IMG/VR virus record: IMGVR_UViG_2654587746_000004
Location: 1 to 37,359 of that record
DNA: 37,359 nucleotides
Direction: 5' to 3' (one strand)
DNA from: a virus
Taxonomy: Duplodnaviria > Heunggongvirae > Uroviricota > Caudoviricetes
Shown: piece by piece, positions 15,689 to 32,878 of the stretch
How the letters are laid out: each line of letters starts with the position of its first letter
Position numbering within the stretch: position 1 is the stretch's first letter
Notes under the pieces: model-generated
The model's input: only the letters and a program-made list of their open reading frames with translations
What the model was told of the DNA's origin: nothing
Database searches by the model: none
Program-made: the position numbers and the translations under genes

Positions 15689-16582
15689 TTATTTTTTTGC
15701 CTTTTTAGCGGCGAAATACGGCGTCCAGTCACCAGTTTCCAGCGCCTTGGCTTTCAGTTTGTCGAGGTTATTGATTACTGCGCCGTTGCTCCCCTTAACT
15801 GTCGGGGTTGTGGCTGCCGTGGTTTTTGCTTTTGGCATGATTCTGGCCTTCGATTCGATACGTTCCAGCAGACGACCAATTGCTACGGGGTTGGTAGCTT
15901 CTGCCAGTTGCTTGCGCAGTTCAGCGTTGCGACCAAGCGCCAAAACAACGATTTCCGGCTTCTCTGACTCAAACAGGATCGCGTTTTGTGTCTCGATGGG
16001 GATTTCCTCGAGTACGGCCTGCTCAGCTTCCTGATAGCCAGGAACTTTGAGAGCCTTAACACGTTGCTGATATTTGGATAATCGCTCTTGATAGGCGGCC
16101 TGAAGCTCCTGCTCCTTCTGCTTGCGAGCCATCTCCTGTTGCTGGTACTTGCCGTTATCCTCTGCCCACTTAGCCATGCGTTGCTGATAGATTTCTTCAT
16201 CGAAACCGATGTCCTCATCATCCAGTTTTGGCATTCGCGGTGGTTGAGTGATTACCGGCTGCTGCTCGACGGGTTTCTGAGACTGACGCATCAGCTCTTT
16301 CAGCTCGCGGTCTTTCTCTTTAATCGTCTTGCGCAGGTGTTTTACCAGTCCATGCTCTGCGCTATCTTCGCTGGTTGGCGAATCCAGCTTTTCGTCACCA
16401 AAGTAGAATTCCTGTTCTGATTCGTCGTCATCAGTGTCAGTAGCTTCCTCTGCATCATTTCCTGAGGACTCACTGCCATCTGCTGTTTCGACTTCTTCAG
16501 CCAGTTCGACATCATCAGGAATCTGCTCTGACGCGTCGGTTTCGATTTCAACTTCTGGTGTGTTTTCTGCCATCTGGTCCAT
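15689..16582 (-). CDS. Scaffolding protein, P22 gp8-like
   Basis: 297-aa highly acidic, Glu/Lys/Gln-rich helical protein between portal and coat. Confidence 0.85.
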   Translation of the reverse strand: MDQMAENTPEVEIETDASEQIPDDVELAEEVETADGSESSGNDAEEATDTDDDESEQEFYFGDEKLDSPTSEDSAEHGLVKHLRKTIKEKDRELKELMRQSQKPVEQQPVITQPPRMPKLDDEDIGFDEEIYQQRMAKWAEDNGKYQQQEMARKQKEQELQAAYQERLSKYQQRVKALKVPGYQEAEQAVLEEIPIETQNAILFESEKPEIVVLALGRNAELRKQLAEATNPVAIGRLLERIESKARIMPKAKTTAATTPTVKGSNGAVINNLDKLKAKALETGDWTPYFAAKKAKK

Positions 16583-21788: not shown

Positions 21789-22307
21789 TCACTTTGGCAG
21801 TCCGGGGATCGATATTTGCGCCTGCTGCTCAAGCCTTTTGATTCTTGCTATGAGTTGCGGTTTTTTGATCCTGCCCCAGCGGTTCAGCAAGCGTCCTGAC
21901 ATACTGGCAACATCCTTTTCCTTCATGAACTCCAGCATTAACTCGTTGTGCTCTCTTTGGTATGAGTGAGCCATCTCCATCAGCCTGTCACGCATCCAAT
22001 TAAATGCTTTGATAAACGCCTCTTTGATGGCGGCAGCTTTTTTGCCGGTAAACGACATGATGATGTACATCGCACCGTCTTTGGAAATTTCATATTCAAC
22101 ATACTGATTACCCTTGTGTTCATAGGTAACCCGCGAAAAGTTGCTGGTTAGAAATTCATCCGAACAGTCTAGCTTTTCGATTTTCTGAATGATGTGGTGA
22201 TGCTGCTTGTCGAAGTAAGCTGCTACCTTGCGGGAGGTTGTGATCACGCGATCACCAGAAACAACCACCATGTCCCGGAAATCGAGATTAGCCAATTGAT
22301 GATTCAT
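21789..22307 (-). CDS. rha: Rha-family phage regulatory protein
   Basis: 172-aa product from internal ATG (MNHQLANLDFRDMVVVSGDRVITTSRKVAAYFDKQHHHIIQKIEKL...) typical of the Rha N-domain; upstream part of the 253-aa track ORF treated as noncoding. Confidence 0.75.
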   Translation of the reverse strand: MNHQLANLDFRDMVVVSGDRVITTSRKVAAYFDKQHHHIIQKIEKLDCSDEFLTSNFSRVTYEHKGNQYVEYEISKDGAMYIIMSFTGKKAAAIKEAFIKAFNWMRDRLMEMAHSYQREHNELMLEFMKEKDVASMSGRLLNRWGRIKKPQLIARIKRLEQQAQISIPGLPK

Positions 22308-22447
22308 AGCGTCTTTACCTTTTAGAAAGTGAGCCTGTCTCACAGAAAAGCCGCCCGAGAGAGGTCGCCACCTATAACGGCATTTCTCAGGCTCGCTTAC
22401 TGAAAGGCTCTCGTTAATATGCGCGTGAGATGCGCTGTGAAATTCAG

Positions 22448-22474
22448 ATATAAAAAGCCCCGCGAATGCGAGGC
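22448..22474 (-). terminator. Rho-independent terminator downstream of Rz
   Basis: Minus strand: hairpin CCTCGC-ATTC-GCGGGG (one G-U pair) followed by CTTTTTAT. Confidence 0.55.
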
Positions 22475-22649
22475 TAAATCCTGGTATTTGTAATGAACTG
22501 GCTCTTATCTCAACGCAGCCCCTTACTGCGCGCCAGATGCTCAATATCAAGCATCAGCAATGAGATGTTTAATCTGGATTCACTCCAGAAGTGATCACCA
22601 CCCTGTCTACAGAGCCAGATGTGAAGGATGATGAGTAGAATTATCGCCA

Positions 22650-23087
22650 TCATCGAAGGCATTGCGTCCTGATGTATTCCTGCAGGTAGTTAACCTGCGC
22701 GGTTATCCTGTCGATTCCACTTCGGAGACGGTAATAATTGAGTTCAGCATCTGCTGTAAGTCTTGGGCTTTCTCCATCGCCCATGCTGCTGGCTCCGGTC
22801 GTTGACTTTGCACAGGTGGCGGCGACTTGCAGGCGCTTACGCCCAGCAGAAACATCAGCACGGAGGCTTTCGATAGTCGCGTTAGCATCAGCAAGCTCCT
22901 TTGTGTATCTGGCGTCAAGTTCTGCTACATCACGTTGACGCTTCTGCATGTCAGCGATTGTGGATGTGGCCTTATCGCGCTGCTCTTTGTAGGTCATGGC
23001 GTTATCACGGTAATGATTAACAGCCCATGAAAGGTAGACGATGATGCAGATAACCAGAGCGGAGATAATCGCGGTTACTCTGCTCAT
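22650..23087 (-). CDS. Rz: Spanin inner-membrane subunit Rz (i-spanin)
   Basis: 145-aa ORF after endolysin; N-terminal TM segment ([14 protein letters not shown]) then coiled-coil periplasmic domain; contains embedded +1-frame Rz1. Confidence 0.85.
22703..22888 (-). CDS. Rz1: Spanin outer-membrane lipoprotein Rz1 (o-spanin), embedded in Rz
   Basis: Embedded [39 protein letters not shown]...: lipobox VSAC and Pro-rich region as in lambda Rz1; start chosen at the Met giving a signal peptide. Confidence 0.7.
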
Positions 23088-23560
23088 ACCTCAATCTCTC
23101 TGACCGTTCCGCCAGCCTCTTTGAATTTTGCAATCAGGCTGTCAACCTTATGCTCGAACTGACCATAACCAGCGCCAGGCAGTGAAGCCCAGATATTGCT
23201 GCAACGGTCGATTGCCTGACGGATATCACCGCGATCAATCATCGGCAAAGCGCCACGCTCTTTAATCTGTTGCAATGCCACAGCGTCCTGGCTTTTCGGA
23301 GAGAAATCTTTCAGGCCAAGCTGCTTACGGTAGGCGTCCCACCAACGGGAAAGAAGCTGGTAACGTCCGGCTGCTGTTGATTTGAGTTTGGGGTTTAGCG
23401 TGACAAGTTTGCGAGGGTGATCTGAGTAATCAGTGAATAGCTCTCCGCCTACAATGACGTCATAACCATGATTTCTGGTTTTCTGTAGTCCGTTATCAGT
23501 TCCCTCTGACCACGCCAGCATATCGAGGAACGCATTACGTTGATTATTGATTTCCACCAT
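23084..23560 (-). CDS. R: Endolysin R (lytic transglycosylase, lambda R-type)
   Basis: 158-aa product [24 protein letters not shown]...GGTVREIEV near-identical to remembered lambda R. Confidence 0.95.
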
Positions 23561-23867
23561 CTTCTACTCCGGCTTTTTTAGCAGCGAAGCGTTTGATAAG
23601 CGAACCAATCGAGTCAGTACCGATGTAGCCGATGAACACGCTCGTTATATAAGCGAGATTGCTACTTAGTCCGGCGAAGTCGAGAAGGTCACGAATGAAC
23701 CAGGCGATAATGGCGCACATCGTTGCGTCGATTACTGTTTTTGTAAACGCACCGCCATTATATCTGCCGCGAAGGTACGCCATTGCAAACGCAAGGATTG
23801 CCCCGATGCCTTGTTCCTTTGCCGCGAGAATGGCAGCTAACAGGTCATGTTTTTCTGGCATCTTCAT
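23544..23867 (-). CDS. S: Holin S (class I, lambda S107/S105-type)
   Basis: 107-aa product [62 protein letters not shown]... matches remembered lambda S, including the dual-start MKM motif. Confidence 0.95.
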
Positions 23868-24030
23868 GTCTTACCCCCAGAAGGGGATCTGTTCAAATTA
23901 GGAATTATAGATATGGTCGCTTGAACAAATCCGGGTTACGGTTGATTTGTAACGGGTTTGTTCGTGACCGCATTCATGAGCAAATCAGGCGTGGATTGCG
24001 CCAACAATACATGCCGCTCATATCACGAAG

Positions 24031-24060
24031 CCCAGCCATTGATGCTGGGTTTTCTTTTTT
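24031..24060 (+). terminator. Intrinsic terminator on plus strand, antisense to the late leader
   Basis: CCCAGC-CATTGAT-GCTGGG followed by TTTTCTTTTTT on the plus strand; the minus strand has no U-tract after the stem. Confidence 0.5.
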
Positions 24061-24420
24061 AAAGCGCACTAGACAACCGTATCCACAGAGTGTCAGCAAT
24101 GAGTTGGTTAGGTCTGGTTCTTGGTGGAAGTACGCTTTAAAAAATGGGCTGAGGGTTGTAGCCCAAAATACTGAGGGAATGGTAAGGATGAACAACGGTT
24201 TTGCTCTGGGTGGATTTGGCTGTGGTGGCCGGCGCTGATCTCCGGCTTGTATACAGGCACCTTGTTCTTCCGAAGCTCTCCTGCGCGCATCAGCCTGCGC
24301 ATTCACCACACCGGAAAGAGCACTCAGTTGTACCGGCCAGTTGTGCCACTAAGAAATGCTTTCGCAGACCGTTAAGCTCTTTGCCAGTTCTTTAATGCTC
24401 TTACCTGTTGTGCAGATATA

Positions 24421-24478
24421 AAAAATCCCGAAACCGTTATGCAGGCTCTAACTATTACCTGCGAACTGTTTCGGGATT
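24421..24478 (-). terminator. tR' late terminator
   Basis: Minus strand GCAATCCCGAAACAGTTCGCAGGTAATAGTTAGAGCCTGCATAACGGTTTCGGGATTTTTT matches remembered lambda tR'. Confidence 0.85.
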
Positions 24479-24612
24479 GCATTTTGCAGACCTCTCAGCC
24501 TGCGATGGTTGGAGTTCCAGACGATACGTCGAAGTGACCAACTAGGCGGAATCGGTAGTAAGCGCCGCCTCTTTTTATCTCACTACCACAACGAGCGAAT
24601 TAACCCATCGTT
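24421..24612 (-). ncRNA. 6S RNA-like short pR' transcript (pR' to tR')
   Basis: Segment between pR' and tR' closely matches the remembered lambda 6S RNA region; about 190 nt, contains the qut-associated sequence. Confidence 0.6.
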
Positions 24613-24618
24613 GGGTCA

Positions 24619-24647
24619 AATTTACCCAACTTTATTCAAAAAGTCAA
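24619..24647 (-). promoter_or_regulatory. Late promoter pR' with overlapping qut site
   Basis: Minus strand TTGACT - 17 nt - TAAATT directly downstream of Q, matching lambda pR' context. Confidence 0.8.
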
Positions 24648-24689
24648 TATCATGCCGTTAATATGTTGCCATCCGTGGCAATCATGCTG

Positions 24690-25313
24690 CTAACGTGTGA
24701 CCGCGTTCAAAATGTTGTCTGCGATTGACTCTTCCTTGTGGCATTGAACCACCAGAGCGTCATACAGCGGCTTAACAGTGCGTGACCAGGTGGGTTGAGT
24801 AAGGTTTGGGATTAGCATCGTTACAGCGCGATATGCGGCGCTTGCTGGCATCCTTGAATAGCCGACACCTTTGCATCTTCCGCACTCTTTCTCAACAACT
24901 CTCCCCCACTGCTCTGTTTTTGCTATATCAACCGCGCGGCCTGTACCGTGGCAATCTCTGCATCTTGCCCCCGGCGTCGCGGCACTACGGCAATAATCCG
25001 CATAAGCGAATGTTGCGAGCACTTGCAGTACCTTTGCCTTAGTATTTCCTTCGAGCTTTGCCACACCACGGTATTTCCCCGATACCTTGTGTGCAAATTG
25101 CATCAGATAGTTGATAGCCTTTTGTTTGTCGTTCTGGCTGAGTTCGTGCTTACCACAGAATGCAGCCATTCCAAATCCGGCTTGTGATTGCGCCATCCCC
25201 ATAGCAGCCATCACATCAGTACCGGAAAGAGAGTCAGAAGCCGTGGCCCGTGGTGAGTCGCTCATCATCGGGCTTTTTGGCGAATGAAATTTAGCTACAC
25301 TTTCGAGTCTCAT
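24690..25313 (-). CDS. Q: Late antiterminator Q (lambda-type)
   Basis: 207-aa product MRLESVAKFHSPKSPMMSDSPRATASDSLSGTDVMAAMGMAQSQAGFG... essentially identical to remembered lambda Q. Confidence 0.95.
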   Translation of the reverse strand: MRLESVAKFHSPKSPMMSDSPRATASDSLSGTDVMAAMGMAQSQAGFGMAAFCGKHELSQNDKQKAINYLMQFAHKVSGKYRGVAKLEGNTKAKVLQVLATFAYADYCRSAATPGARCRDCHGTGRAVDIAKTEQWGRVVEKECGRCKGVGYSRMPASAAYRAVTMLIPNLTQPTWSRTVKPLYDALVVQCHKEESIADNILNAVTR

Positions 25314-25498
25314 GGTCTACCCCTCTTGCCCTGTTTGACCATCAGGACGCCGTTAACTATTACGTGACGCTCGCCTTTGCTGTCTCGGTTGTACTTGAGC
25401 ACTGTTCCTCTTGCGCAGGAAAGCATCCTCGCCACTTCGGTCTGATTGCCTCGTGTCTGGATAAGAAGCTCTGGTATCGTTTGAATTGTGGCGTTCAT
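25310..25498 (-). CDS. ninH: NinH-like protein
   Basis: 62-aa product with ..GNQTEVARMLSCARGTVLKY..IVNGVLMV.. resembling lambda NinH HTH region; directly upstream of Q. Confidence 0.8.
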   Translation of the reverse strand: MNATIQTIPELLIQTRGNQTEVARMLSCARGTVLKYNRDSKGERHVIVNGVLMVKQGKRGRP

Positions 25499-25857
25499 GC
25501 GTTCTCCAGTTCGGTGATTTTTATTCCAAGCCTTCCGCCTGGTACTTTCACGCCACGAATTACGCGAATGTCATCGAATTGCTCGTCATCTTCCGCAAAC
25601 CCGGCGTGGATAAGGGAGTCGAGTAAGCCCTTCAGGATGTTATCGAGGTCGCGGCGGCGGGAGTCTGGAACGTCTGCGATGACTTTGATGCGGAGTCGTG
25701 ATTTGGTGAAAATGTCTAACTTGAGTTGGCGGATGATTTGCTGAACGTCTTTTCGGTATTTCTGGCCTTTATCGCTGATGTAGTATTGGCTTCCCCGTCT
25801 TCGCCAGTAGGTATTCACCGACGGCGGGTAAGGAAGCACAAACTGATATTCGTTCAT
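25495..25857 (-). CDS. rusA: Holliday-junction resolvase RusA
   Basis: 120-aa product; motifs LPYPPSVNTYW, RRRDLDNILKGLLDSL and GGRLGIKITELE match RusA family. Confidence 0.9.
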   Translation of the reverse strand: MNEYQFVLPYPPSVNTYWRRRGSQYYISDKGQKYRKDVQQIIRQLKLDIFTKSRLRIKVIADVPDSRRRDLDNILKGLLDSLIHAGFAEDDEQFDDIRVIRGVKVPGGRLGIKITELENA

Positions 25858-31914: not shown

Positions 31915-32565
31915 ATGAAAACTCAATTGATGGGAGAGCGCATTCGCGCTCGGAGAAAAGAACTCAAGATCAGGCAGGCCGCACTTGGAAAGATGGTCGG
32001 CGTGTCTAATGTTGCCATATCTCAGTGGGAACGCTCTGAGACAGAGCCAAATGGAGAGAATCTTCTCGCCCTGGCTAATGCGTTGAAGTGTTCCCCTGAC
32101 TATCTGATGAAAGGAGAGGAAAGTCTTTCAAACATTGCCTATCACAGTAGGCATGATCCAAGAGGGTCATACCCTCTGATTAGCTGGGTGAGCGCAGGAT
32201 GCTGGATGGAAGCTGTAGAACCATATCATAAGCGTGCAATAGATAACTGGTACGATACAACCGTAGACTGTTCAGAAGATTCGTTTTGGTTGGACGTGAA
32301 GGGAGACTCAATGACGGCTCCGGCCGGTCTCAGTATCCCTGAAGGAATGATAATACTCGTCGATCCTGAAGTAGAGCCGCGTAACGGGAAACTGGTAGTT
32401 GCAAAGCTCGAAGGAGAAAACGAGGCAACTTTCAAGAAGTTAGTTATTGATGCAGGCAGGAAGTTTCTAAAACCACTTAACCCACAATATCCGATGATCG
32501 AGATCAACGGAAACTGCAAAATCATCGGCGTAGTTGTCGATGCAAAACTAGCAAACCTTCCATAA
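31915..32565 (+). CDS. c2: Prophage repressor C2 (P22-type CI; LexA-like autocleavage domain)
   Basis: 216-aa product MKTQLMGERIRARRKELKIRQAALGKMVGVSNVAISQWERSETEPNGENLLALANAL... near-identical to remembered P22 C2; C-terminal S24 peptidase-like domain. Confidence 0.95.
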   Translation: MKTQLMGERIRARRKELKIRQAALGKMVGVSNVAISQWERSETEPNGENLLALANALKCSPDYLMKGEESLSNIAYHSRHDPRGSYPLISWVSAGCWMEAVEPYHKRAIDNWYDTTVDCSEDSFWLDVKGDSMTAPAGLSIPEGMIILVDPEVEPRNGKLVVAKLEGENEATFKKLVIDAGRKFLKPLNPQYPMIEINGNCKIIGVVVDAKLANLP

Positions 32566-32730: not shown

Positions 32731-32771
32731 GCTCTTTAACATTGATGGGATTGTCCCGCCGAAATGCGGGA
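32731..32771 (+). promoter_or_regulatory. nutL (boxA + boxB)
   Basis: boxA GCTCTTTAACA followed by boxB hairpin CCCGCCGAAATGCGGG, the same as at nutR. Confidence 0.75.
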
Positions 32772-32878
32772 ACCAAAGAGTAGTTGGCTTTGGGGTGACG
32801 TGAAGTGCAGCTGCACGACGGCAACCGGAAGATAAGCACCCGGCGCGTCACCGCCAAAGTCAATCATCGGAGGTCAAC

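Follow-up and report, generated by a model that had tools for sequence, protein, structure and literature searches.

A predicted tRNA-shaped RNA element and a conserved multi-helix leader between the genes Q and S of an HK620-like prophage

The late leader between the antiterminator gene Q and the holin gene S is described here for the viral record IMGVR_UViG_2654587746_000004, whose full 37,359 nucleotides (nt) are called the window. In the direction of late transcription, on the minus strand, Q is followed by the late promoter pR', the terminator tR', two structured elements named modules S and B, a second terminator and an S-proximal leader, and then by the late genes S, R and Rz (Table 1). 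An earlier note, made from the letters of the window, had flagged a hairpin with a T-run on the plus strand of this leader as a terminator of antisense transcription. Module B, which has the geometry of a tRNA, is probably a stable RNA that is cut from late transcripts and displays a variable arm. The flagged hairpin is read as one helix of the structured late leader.

Genes, features and mosaic composition of the leader

The leader was compared with those of the phages lambda and HK620 by pairwise blastn. Lambda 44449..44805 corresponds to window 24750..24394 at 97.8% over 357 bp, a block that comprises the end of Q, pR', qut, the 6S RNA segment and tR'. On the other side, window 23984..23500 matches lambda at 91.7%, with about 117 bp of the match upstream of the S gene. 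The 410 bp in between (24394..23984) have no lambda counterpart except for a 24-nt island, and lambda holds 258 bp at this place. The earlier note had described a pR'/6S/tR' segment kept as in lambda, which was confirmed, together with about 130 conserved bp before the S gene and a divergent centre of about 350 bp, both of which were roughly right.

The centre of the leader resembles HK620. Window 24412..23500 is 99.3% identical to that phage, the late leader of HK620/HK633 (AF335538 15994-16538) matches the window at 99.8% over 545 bp of the flagged interval, and modules S and B equal those of HK620 at 100% over 213 bp. The lambda match stops at 24394 and the HK620 match begins at 24412; because this switch coincides with 19 nt common to both phages, these 19 nt are likely a recombination joint. 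The leader is thus a three-part mosaic of a lambda-type pR'-qut-6S-tR' segment, an HK620-type RNA cargo and a conserved S-proximal leader. The suggestion that cargo had been exchanged at this site holds for the leader centre, a structured RNA gene 99-100% identical to HK620, but not for the plus-strand terminator, which belongs to ordinary leader. A 291-bp piece tested from the leader centre is 100% identical to the chromosome of Escherichia coli HS. Of 5426 complete E. coli genomes, 108 contain it, each as a single chromosomal copy; in 99 of these 108, modules S and B retain at least 95% identity. Judged by these matches, the window is a lambdoid, HK620-like prophage, that of E. coli HS.

Table 1 Features of the late region of the window (ORF, open reading frame)
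Feature	Position	Strand	Basis
Q antiterminator gene	24690..25313	-	207-aa ORF; matching region annotated Q in HK620 and lambda
pR' late promoter, TTGACT-17-TAAATT	24619..24647	-	promoter scan; within the 97.8% lambda-identical block
Lambda-type tR' terminator, end of 6S RNA segment, AATCCCGAAAC...GTTTCGGGATTTTTT	24420..24478	-	part of the lambda-identical block
Likely recombination joint, 19 nt ACAACAGGTAAGAGCATTA, 5' strand of module S, common to lambda and HK620	24394..24412	-	blastn, lambda alignment
Module S, long hairpin ACAAC-A-GG-U-AAGAGCAUU ... AGUGCUCUU-U-CC-GUUGU with variable apical insert	24308..24411	-	covariation, fold
Module B, 94-nt tRNA-shaped RNA	24217..24310	-	covariance model, fold, covariation
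B, stem P1, 5' strand	24310-24304	-	
B, D-like hairpin	24300-24285	-	
B, variable arm	24284-24253	-	
B, T-like hairpin	24246-24228	-	
B, stem P1, 3' strand	24227-24221	-	
B, GCCA	24220-24217	-	
Second late-direction intrinsic terminator (HK620 'tQ'), GGGCU-ACAACCCUC-AGCCC + AUUUUUU	24139..24164	-	HK620 annotation, fold
Long-range leader helix, AAAGCGUACU 24138-24129 with AGUGCGCUUU 24070-24061	24061..24138	-	RNAalifold consensus
Flagged element, late strand: A-rich linker 24060-24050, hairpin CCCAGC-AUCAAUG-GCUGGG 24049-24031	24031-24060	-	terminator scan, folding
Flagged element, plus strand: CCCAGC 24031-24036, loop 24037-24043, GCTGGG 24044-24049, T-run TTTTCTTTTTT / UUUUCUUUUUU 24050-24060	24031-24060	+	
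Leader helix, CUUCGUGA 24030-24023 with UCACGAA 23967-23961, inner hairpin enclosed	23961..24030	-	RNAalifold consensus
GGAUUUGUUC 23932-23923; partner GAACAGAUCC 23894-23885 or upstream CGAACAAAC (~23965-23955)	23874..23932	-	RNAalifold consensus; alignment A1
S holin gene	23544..23867	-	107-aa ORF; annotated holin in HK620 and lambda
R gene	23084..23560	-	late gene
Rz gene	22650..23087	-	late gene

Modules B and S and their relatives

The geometry of module B is that of a tRNA with non-tRNA loops, because a terminal stem (P1) of exactly 7 bp runs without interruption into a 5-bp T-like stem, as acceptor and T-stem do in tRNA, 3 nt separate P1 from a 5-bp D-like hairpin, and a 32-nt variable arm takes the position of the anticodon arm. 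The T-like loop reads AGAUCAGCG, the D-like loop GGCUGA, and a 7-nt anticodon loop is missing, all of which depart from tRNA. In the family, the 5' part UGUGGUG-AAU-GCGCA-GGCUGA-UGCGC and the 3' part GCCGG-AGAUCAGCR-CCGGC-CACCACA enclose an insert of 8-158 nt. The window copy scores 83 bits (E 6e-20) with covariance model R1 (35 diverse members), all helices being present, and its minimum-energy fold is the cloverleaf. After P1 the window encodes G-CCA.

Covariation carries this structure. On 73 distinct scaffolds, drawn from exact-anchor scans in which one half of each sequence was fixed, 97.4% of the cells are paired, compared with 24-54% for slid partners. Nine pairs, with 17 cells, carry changes in both partners, where shuffles give 1.3 (0 of 500), and in the D-like as in the T-like stem four of the five pairs are compensatory. 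A scan anchored on the D-like hairpin, and hence outside P1, yielded 54 distinct versions of this stem, in which each of the seven inner pairs is formed in 94-100% and takes three to five types of pair. For pairs 8 and 9 the figures are 69% and 59%. The paired share of the whole set is 97.1%, compared with 59.5% for shuffled partners. Where a change affects only one side of the acceptor-like stem, it nearly always gives G.U in the late orientation. Finally, GCUGA of the D-loop is complementary to UCAGC of the T-loop, with only GC-to-GU changes seen.

The element goes unnoticed by standard tools. ARAGORN called no tRNA and no transfer-messenger RNA (tmRNA) over the whole window, and Rfam 15 gave no match over 23000-25500 at E values up to 1, including the models for tRNA, tmRNA, small RNAs (sRNAs) and RF01695. 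Two other identities were considered and dropped. A mobile element with terminal inverted repeats, similar to an integron attC site, does not suit one-sided G.U changes in a single orientation and a 7-bp stem that covaries freely. The CUGAUG of the D-like hairpin recalls a hammerhead, whose core does not fit on inspection.

B belongs to a widespread family. Pattern scans of IMG/VR returned more than 119 loci each, all of one layout, and the counts of B copies given in this text are those among the matches listed. When one genome per species was scanned with the D-like hairpin as sole anchor, matches came from at least 120 species across Pseudomonadota; about three quarters of these have true B elements and the rest are coincidences in coding sequence. 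Exact copies of the 19-mer AATGCGCAGGCTGATGCGC (loci L229-L348) were obtained from at least 120 species. These range from Enterobacterales to Xanthomonadales, Burkholderiales and Rhizobiales, with a few metagenome-assembled genomes outside the proteobacteria; about 20 of the matches are such coding-sequence coincidences (CCATGTCGATCGCCAG-19mer). Unrelated T1-like Klebsiella phages have the 104-nt piece 24324..24221, 99% identical, between genes and adjoining tRNA genes, and pieces of it occur in N4-like, epsilon15-like, Vi1-like and other phages. No description of the family was found in Rfam 15 or in the literature searched, which covered few subscription-journal papers, so that an earlier description is possible.

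The genomic context of the copies is recurrent. At least 55 of 242 have a Q-type antiterminator upstream and holin or lysozyme genes downstream, and a further context, directly downstream of a cI/S24-type repressor, accounts for 29 of the 242. B thereby occupies two sites at which temperate phages classically carry cargo, one in the leader between Q and the lysis genes and one downstream of cI. In 9 of 119 viral loci, B has genuine tRNA genes as same-strand neighbours. A same-strand terminator lies within 160 nt downstream of 47 of 183 unique copies, compared with 14 upstream and 6 on the opposite strand, and a -10 box stands just before P1 in 16 copies. Boxes of the TATAAT or GATAAT type, about 7 nt before P1, are seen in several loci. 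Two weak matches were also noted. The window has a second B-like element at 32743-32854 on the plus strand (14.7 bits, E 0.07), just downstream of a cI-like gene (31915..32565), whose flanks TTGGCTTTGGGGT ... CCGCCAAAG resemble a B subfamily in IMG/VR. In enteropathogenic E. coli (EPEC) E2348/69, a match to the B model (locus L130 1672-1767; 12 bits, E 0.33) falls where the nanS-p esterase gene has its 3' end and overlaps the CUGAUGCUGGAGAUAAAUGCA motif, a reported target site of PasA; this is probably chance.

The arm of B is hypervariable, the 143 unique inserts among the matches listed falling into at least 96 clusters. One cluster looks like helix 11 of 16S rRNA (positions 237-283; Rfam E 2e-5 and 4e-7; blastn to rrsH). 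Arms of this kind (loci L067 4600-4646, L076 624-670, L086 and others) show compensating changes. The 32-nt arm of the window itself equals the extended anticodon-arm region of an annotated 86-nt 'tRNA-Pro' in the Ackermannviridae phage SP-9-14 of Salmonella (locus L009 778-863). The D and T arms of this 'tRNA-Pro' are canonical, so that one RNA module occurs in two different scaffolds.

In HK620, the N4-like phage IME11, the T1-like phage ZCKP8 and nine IMG/VR loci, B closes an array of S1, a conserved segment of about 200 nt, S2 and B. The segment has AUAAAU followed by a frame of 10 codons and a stop, the format of the E. coli tmRNA tag, and the frames read ANEEMYLAVA, ANDEQFLAVA, ANDDVVLMAA, ANDDLMLMAA, ANEEVYLAVA and ANEEMYLAAA. 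In HK620 the template lies at AF335538 15883-15915 (locus L001 1867-1899) as GCA AAC GAA GAA AUG UAU CUG GCC GUA GCU UAA, that is ANEEMYLAVA*; IME11 has ANDDVVLMAA* (locus L008 ~618-653), and the template of ZCKP8 stands at ~1292-1324 of locus L004. The Rfam tmRNA models match the tag segment only, with 20-33 bits against a gathering score of 47 (best E 5e-5 in a 571-nt search). The HK620 module was rejected as a nucleotide homologue of E. coli ssrA, with which it shares 13 nt at the tag start. Neither strand of the window contains a tag frame, and such a frame is missing from the 520 nt upstream of 142 of the 154 unique B elements among the matches listed. Published surveys report phage tmRNAs only in mycobacteriophages, Bacillus phage G and a few others (PMC4131195, PMC11915505). 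HK620, IME11 and ZCKP8 are absent from the published lists of tmRNA carriers.

Module S is supported by covariation as well. Its 17 pairs are 97.7% paired across 33 distinct homologues that were collected with anchors outside S, and 7 pairs, with 26 cells, are changed on both sides versus 2.7 and 3.5 in shuffles (reached by 0 of 500). A U.G pair is conserved, G.U pairs lie in the late orientation, and the single sequence of the window folds into the same stem. The apical inserts of relatives measure 19-270 nt. Lambda itself retains the S hairpin and a degenerate B-like remnant. Its late leader at ~44795-44990 (locus L002 ~995-1190), a stretch without annotated function, contains a complete S hairpin, ACAACAGGTAAGAGCATT..AGTGCTCTTTCCGTTGT, with a different insert. 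The remnant has a compensating closing stem, UGUGCUG/CAGCACA, and with 12 bits and E 0.37 it was not accepted as a true member of the B family.

The S-proximal leader and the flagged hairpin

Over the last ~270 nt before the S gene, the late mRNA has a conserved leader made up of several helices. In the late-orientation RNAalifold consensus, the long-range helix shows compensatory changes (AU/CG 4:4, UA/CG 6:3, GC/AU 7:2). In the helix 23961..24030 the outer seven pairs are invariant, and inner pairs alternate between UA and CG (5:3 and 5:4) with several G.U in sense orientation. The flagged hairpin sits between helices with such changes. Across the consensus structure, 26 G.U cells stand against 1 A.C cell; since a G.U pair turns into a C.A mismatch on the opposite strand, this ratio indicates that the flanking helices are under selection as late-sense RNA.

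Closer to the S gene, GAACAGAUCC abuts an sdi-like stem at the start codons, and the alternative pairing of GGAUUUGUUC with it or with CGAACAAAC may be a structure switch acting on S translation. The three segments hardly vary between phages. Together with the covarying helices, such alternative pairings beside the dual-start region of S may bear on the control of lysis timing. At the other end, the second terminator lies 56 nt downstream of B. HK620 16241..16267, annotated as a late transcription terminator, maps to it (window 24164-24139), it folds with -8.4 kcal/mol (z -2.0), and it aligns with the single tR' of ST104, HK022 and epsilon34.

The plus-strand hairpin with T-run was recovered by a consensus terminator scan at exactly the place given by the earlier note. 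It has a 10-pair stem with six G+C-rich core pairs, a 7-nt loop and a T-run, so that a G+C-rich stem-loop is followed directly on its 3' side by a U-tract, as is expected of an intrinsic terminator. On the plus strand it folds with -14.4 kcal/mol (z = -3.9; none of 200 shuffles as stable), on the minus strand with -11.3 kcal/mol (z = -2.3). Under loose criteria, 4 terminator-like sites were found against 1.5 expected in 1.3 kb, and 8 against 6.0 expected in 6.1 kb. Because such sites come at about one per kb here, the pattern alone proves nothing.

Conservation across phages argues that the hairpin stands above chance. Alignment A1 compares the ~300 nt that precede the holin gene in the window, in lambda, in the Salmonella phages SI8, epsilon34, ST104, S9-5 and SE16, and in the coliphages HK022 and HK140. 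On the late strand, AAAAGAAAA-CCCAGC-loop-GCUGGG is found in eight of these nine, lambda excepted, with an invariant stem and a variable loop. The U-tract is kept in relatives as UUUUCUUUU, and A-run/T-run and hairpin are conserved together, also in IMG/VR relatives. The only stem variant, CCCGC/GCGGG in one relative, has lost one pair symmetrically from both sides and keeps the pairing. Lambda shows a clean 23-nt gap, which is exactly the A-run and the hairpin. A phi80-type prophage also has the S-proximal leader with this hairpin, which is thus common to P22-like, HK022-like and phi80-like phages, and about 339 of 5426 E. coli genomes carry that leader. The special status claimed for an antisense terminator at this place is therefore weakened, the segment being ordinary leader in the seven relatives of A1 that have it and in the phi80-type prophage.

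On the plus strand, a consensus sigma-70 scan found no sigma-70-like promoter in 23500-24030, within 500 bp upstream of the hairpin. The sole match in the 6 kb scanned is a weak one (9/12) at 23017-23045. Candidate antisense promoters were rejected as none was convincing, and their hexamers are, by eye, not conserved across the window-, lambda- and epsilon34-type sequences of A1. A small plus-strand ORF (ATG 23977, 28 codons, ending in the T-run) loses its frame in the epsilon34-type leader, as read from A1, and was treated as non-coding. PasA and PasC are antisense Hfq-binding sRNAs with terminators of their own at the equivalent place in EPEC prophages (PMC8550237; bioRxiv 10.64898/2026.05.13.724894). 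The plus-strand element gave no significant blastn match to the PasA and PasC loci of E2348/69. The flagged hairpin is no evidence of an antisense gene. We read the element as a conserved helix and an A-rich linker of the structured late-mRNA leader, of which the plus-strand terminator is the mirror image. The hairpin itself is mostly ordinary, as HK620 has the same leader and the sequence is standard in many lambdoid phages.

Besides these elements, a strong terminator-like hairpin in the late direction, AGCCTCGC-ATTC-GCGGGGCT + TTTTATAT, was observed on the minus strand at 22456-22475. It lies just downstream of Rz, inside the longest ORF call (21789..22550).

Interpretation and comparison with known systems

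The promoter pR' is constitutive and is terminated just downstream in lysogens (PMC7547250). B would arise from pR' transcripts that extend past tR'. Such readthrough would be heavy when Q is present in the lytic cycle; in lysogens it would be slight, and the transcripts would then stop at the second terminator. Enzymes that process tRNA ends may trim B out, and it would persist as a stable scaffold that displays the variable arm. HK620 has the same gene and an upstream tag template, and the joint in module S would account for the tag-less version in the window. The flagged hairpin may additionally stop stray antisense transcription. Whatever its role, B is a conserved structured RNA family which annotation, ARAGORN and Rfam 15 do not recognise.

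Several points speak against this proposal. The single-sequence fold of B is not exceptional (z -1.67), and the scaffold sets had one half fixed, as stated above. A kissing helix between D-loop and T-loop is a suggestion, consistent with the data but unproven. An encoded CCA follows P1 in some copies besides that of the window but is absent from most family members, and with non-canonical T- and D-loops, recognition by tRNA enzymes is a guess. As for the flagged element, conservation extends to the T-run, which a real antisense terminator would need, and its stem is nearly invariant, so that covariation assigns no functional strand.

The combination of two near-invariant hairpins and a hypervariable arm suggests contact with a universally conserved host machine. 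A bolder idea is that B, and perhaps module S, are tRNA-shaped, RNase-resistant scaffolds for hypervariable RNA payloads, some of which copy the host translation apparatus. It is prompted by the helix-11 arm cluster, the arm shared with the Ackermannviridae tRNA-like gene and the tag template in the same array, and we hold it to be rather improbable. If it were true, the payloads would serve to titrate those host factors or anti-phage nucleases by which such RNAs are recognised, and payload diversity would reflect an arms race.

Concerning the plus strand, the hairpin and T-run could still be a working terminator, either the 3' end of an antisense sRNA opposing the S leader or an insulator that stops antisense transcription from the late region before it enters the RNA cargo, pR' and Q. 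We regard this as a serious possibility, though not the probable one. Its anatomy is textbook, it is the best terminator-like site in 6 kb with the plus-strand z-score given above, its T-run is kept with the hairpin in the seven A1 relatives and those from IMG/VR, and PasA/PasC offer a precedent for antisense RNAs between cargo and holin in EPEC prophages (PMC8550237; bioRxiv 10.64898/2026.05.13.724894). However, no conserved or consensus-like plus-strand promoter lies between the S gene and the hairpin, the element has neither similarity to PasA/PasC nor an Rfam sRNA match, the helices around it are constrained as late-sense RNA, lambda manages without the element, and the 28-codon frame into the T-run is not kept in epsilon34-type sequences (read from A1). 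Chance resemblance without function on either strand is very improbable: terminator-like matches do come at about one per kb in the region, but the stem is kept and the loop free across phages that are 70-83% identical overall, and the CCCGC/GCGGG variant loses its pair on both sides.

As for the cargo, modules S and B could be an inert relic of a functional unit, the full HK620-type gene with its tag template, of which recombination removed an essential part. The window does lack the tag frame and the first S hairpin of HK620, and decay has a precedent in the 12-bit remnant of lambda. This is nevertheless unlikely, as the perfect match to HK620 over 213 bp and the high identity kept in 99 of 108 E. 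coli genomes argue against decay, and the 142 of 154 B elements without a tag, several of them with their own -10 box, imply that the tag module is not needed for B to function, or at any rate to persist. A role in trans-translation appears less likely still. Here B would be the tRNA-like domain (TLD) of a phage tmRNA-like system, or a decoy that binds SmpB or the ribosome to hijack or block the process. The linkage of B to 10-codon templates after AUAAAU in 12 loci, the weak tmRNA-model matches over these templates (33 bits, E 5e-5) and the inhibition of tmRNA by TLD-only phage RNAs elsewhere (PMC4131195; PMC11915505) fit such a role. Yet B has no G3.U70; position 3:70 is U-A in enterobacterial copies and P1 is free elsewhere, so that no acceptor identity is conserved. 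The T-loop is not GUUCRANNC, the order of template and then complete tRNA-like unit fits neither a standard nor a permuted tmRNA, ssrA similarity is limited to 13 nt, ARAGORN calls no tmRNA, and all Rfam tmRNA scores are below the gathering score. The missing G3.U70, the lack of a conserved acceptor identity and a gene order that does not fit exclude B as the tRNA-like domain of a standard tmRNA.

The stable, processed RNA that we propose can be set beside known systems. C4 antisense RNA of P1/P7 and CI RNA of P4, which are common in Pseudomonadota prophages, are cut from a longer transcript, processed by RNase P and closed by an acceptor-like stem. B is likewise a small phage RNA closed by a terminal stem. 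In contrast to C4 (RF01695), it has no match to that model, its loops are the same in all hosts and not complementary to a nearby target, and its arm is hypervariable. The plus-strand hairpin, if functional, would share with PasA/PasC a leader position immediately before the holin gene, an orientation antisense to the late operon and an intrinsic terminator end. No sequence is shared, and transcripts and Hfq binding have been demonstrated for PasA/PasC, whereas the flagged hairpin is known from sequence alone.

With tmRNA and mycobacteriophage DS6A, B shares a tRNA-like unit without an anticodon and, in some phages, a 10-codon tag ending in LAVA, LMAA or LAAA. It differs by the missing G3.U70, a non-canonical T-loop, another gene order and sub-threshold model scores. 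The domain-only (TLD-only) form of DS6A is reported to inhibit tmRNA (PMC4131195, PMC11915505).

The Stx phages, such as 933W, similarly carry RNA cargo with tRNA geometry downstream of a constitutive pR' and a terminator. In 933W this cargo presumably consists of the tRNA genes ileZ-argN-argO, between Q/pR' and the lysis genes. Unlike these tRNAs, B has no anticodon loop, its D- and T-loops are non-canonical, and neither ARAGORN nor the Rfam tRNA model calls it. Short pR' transcripts can themselves be used as RNAs, as is known from StxS (PMC7547250).

The closest counterpart is HK620/HK633, in which the leader is annotated with only a promoter, qut and tQ and no RNA gene. Module S, module B, the second terminator 'tQ' and the flagged hairpin are all present in both leaders. 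The difference lies upstream, where HK620 has its own tR' and about 380 nt with another S hairpin and the tag template, while the window has the lambda-type 6S/tR' segment there.

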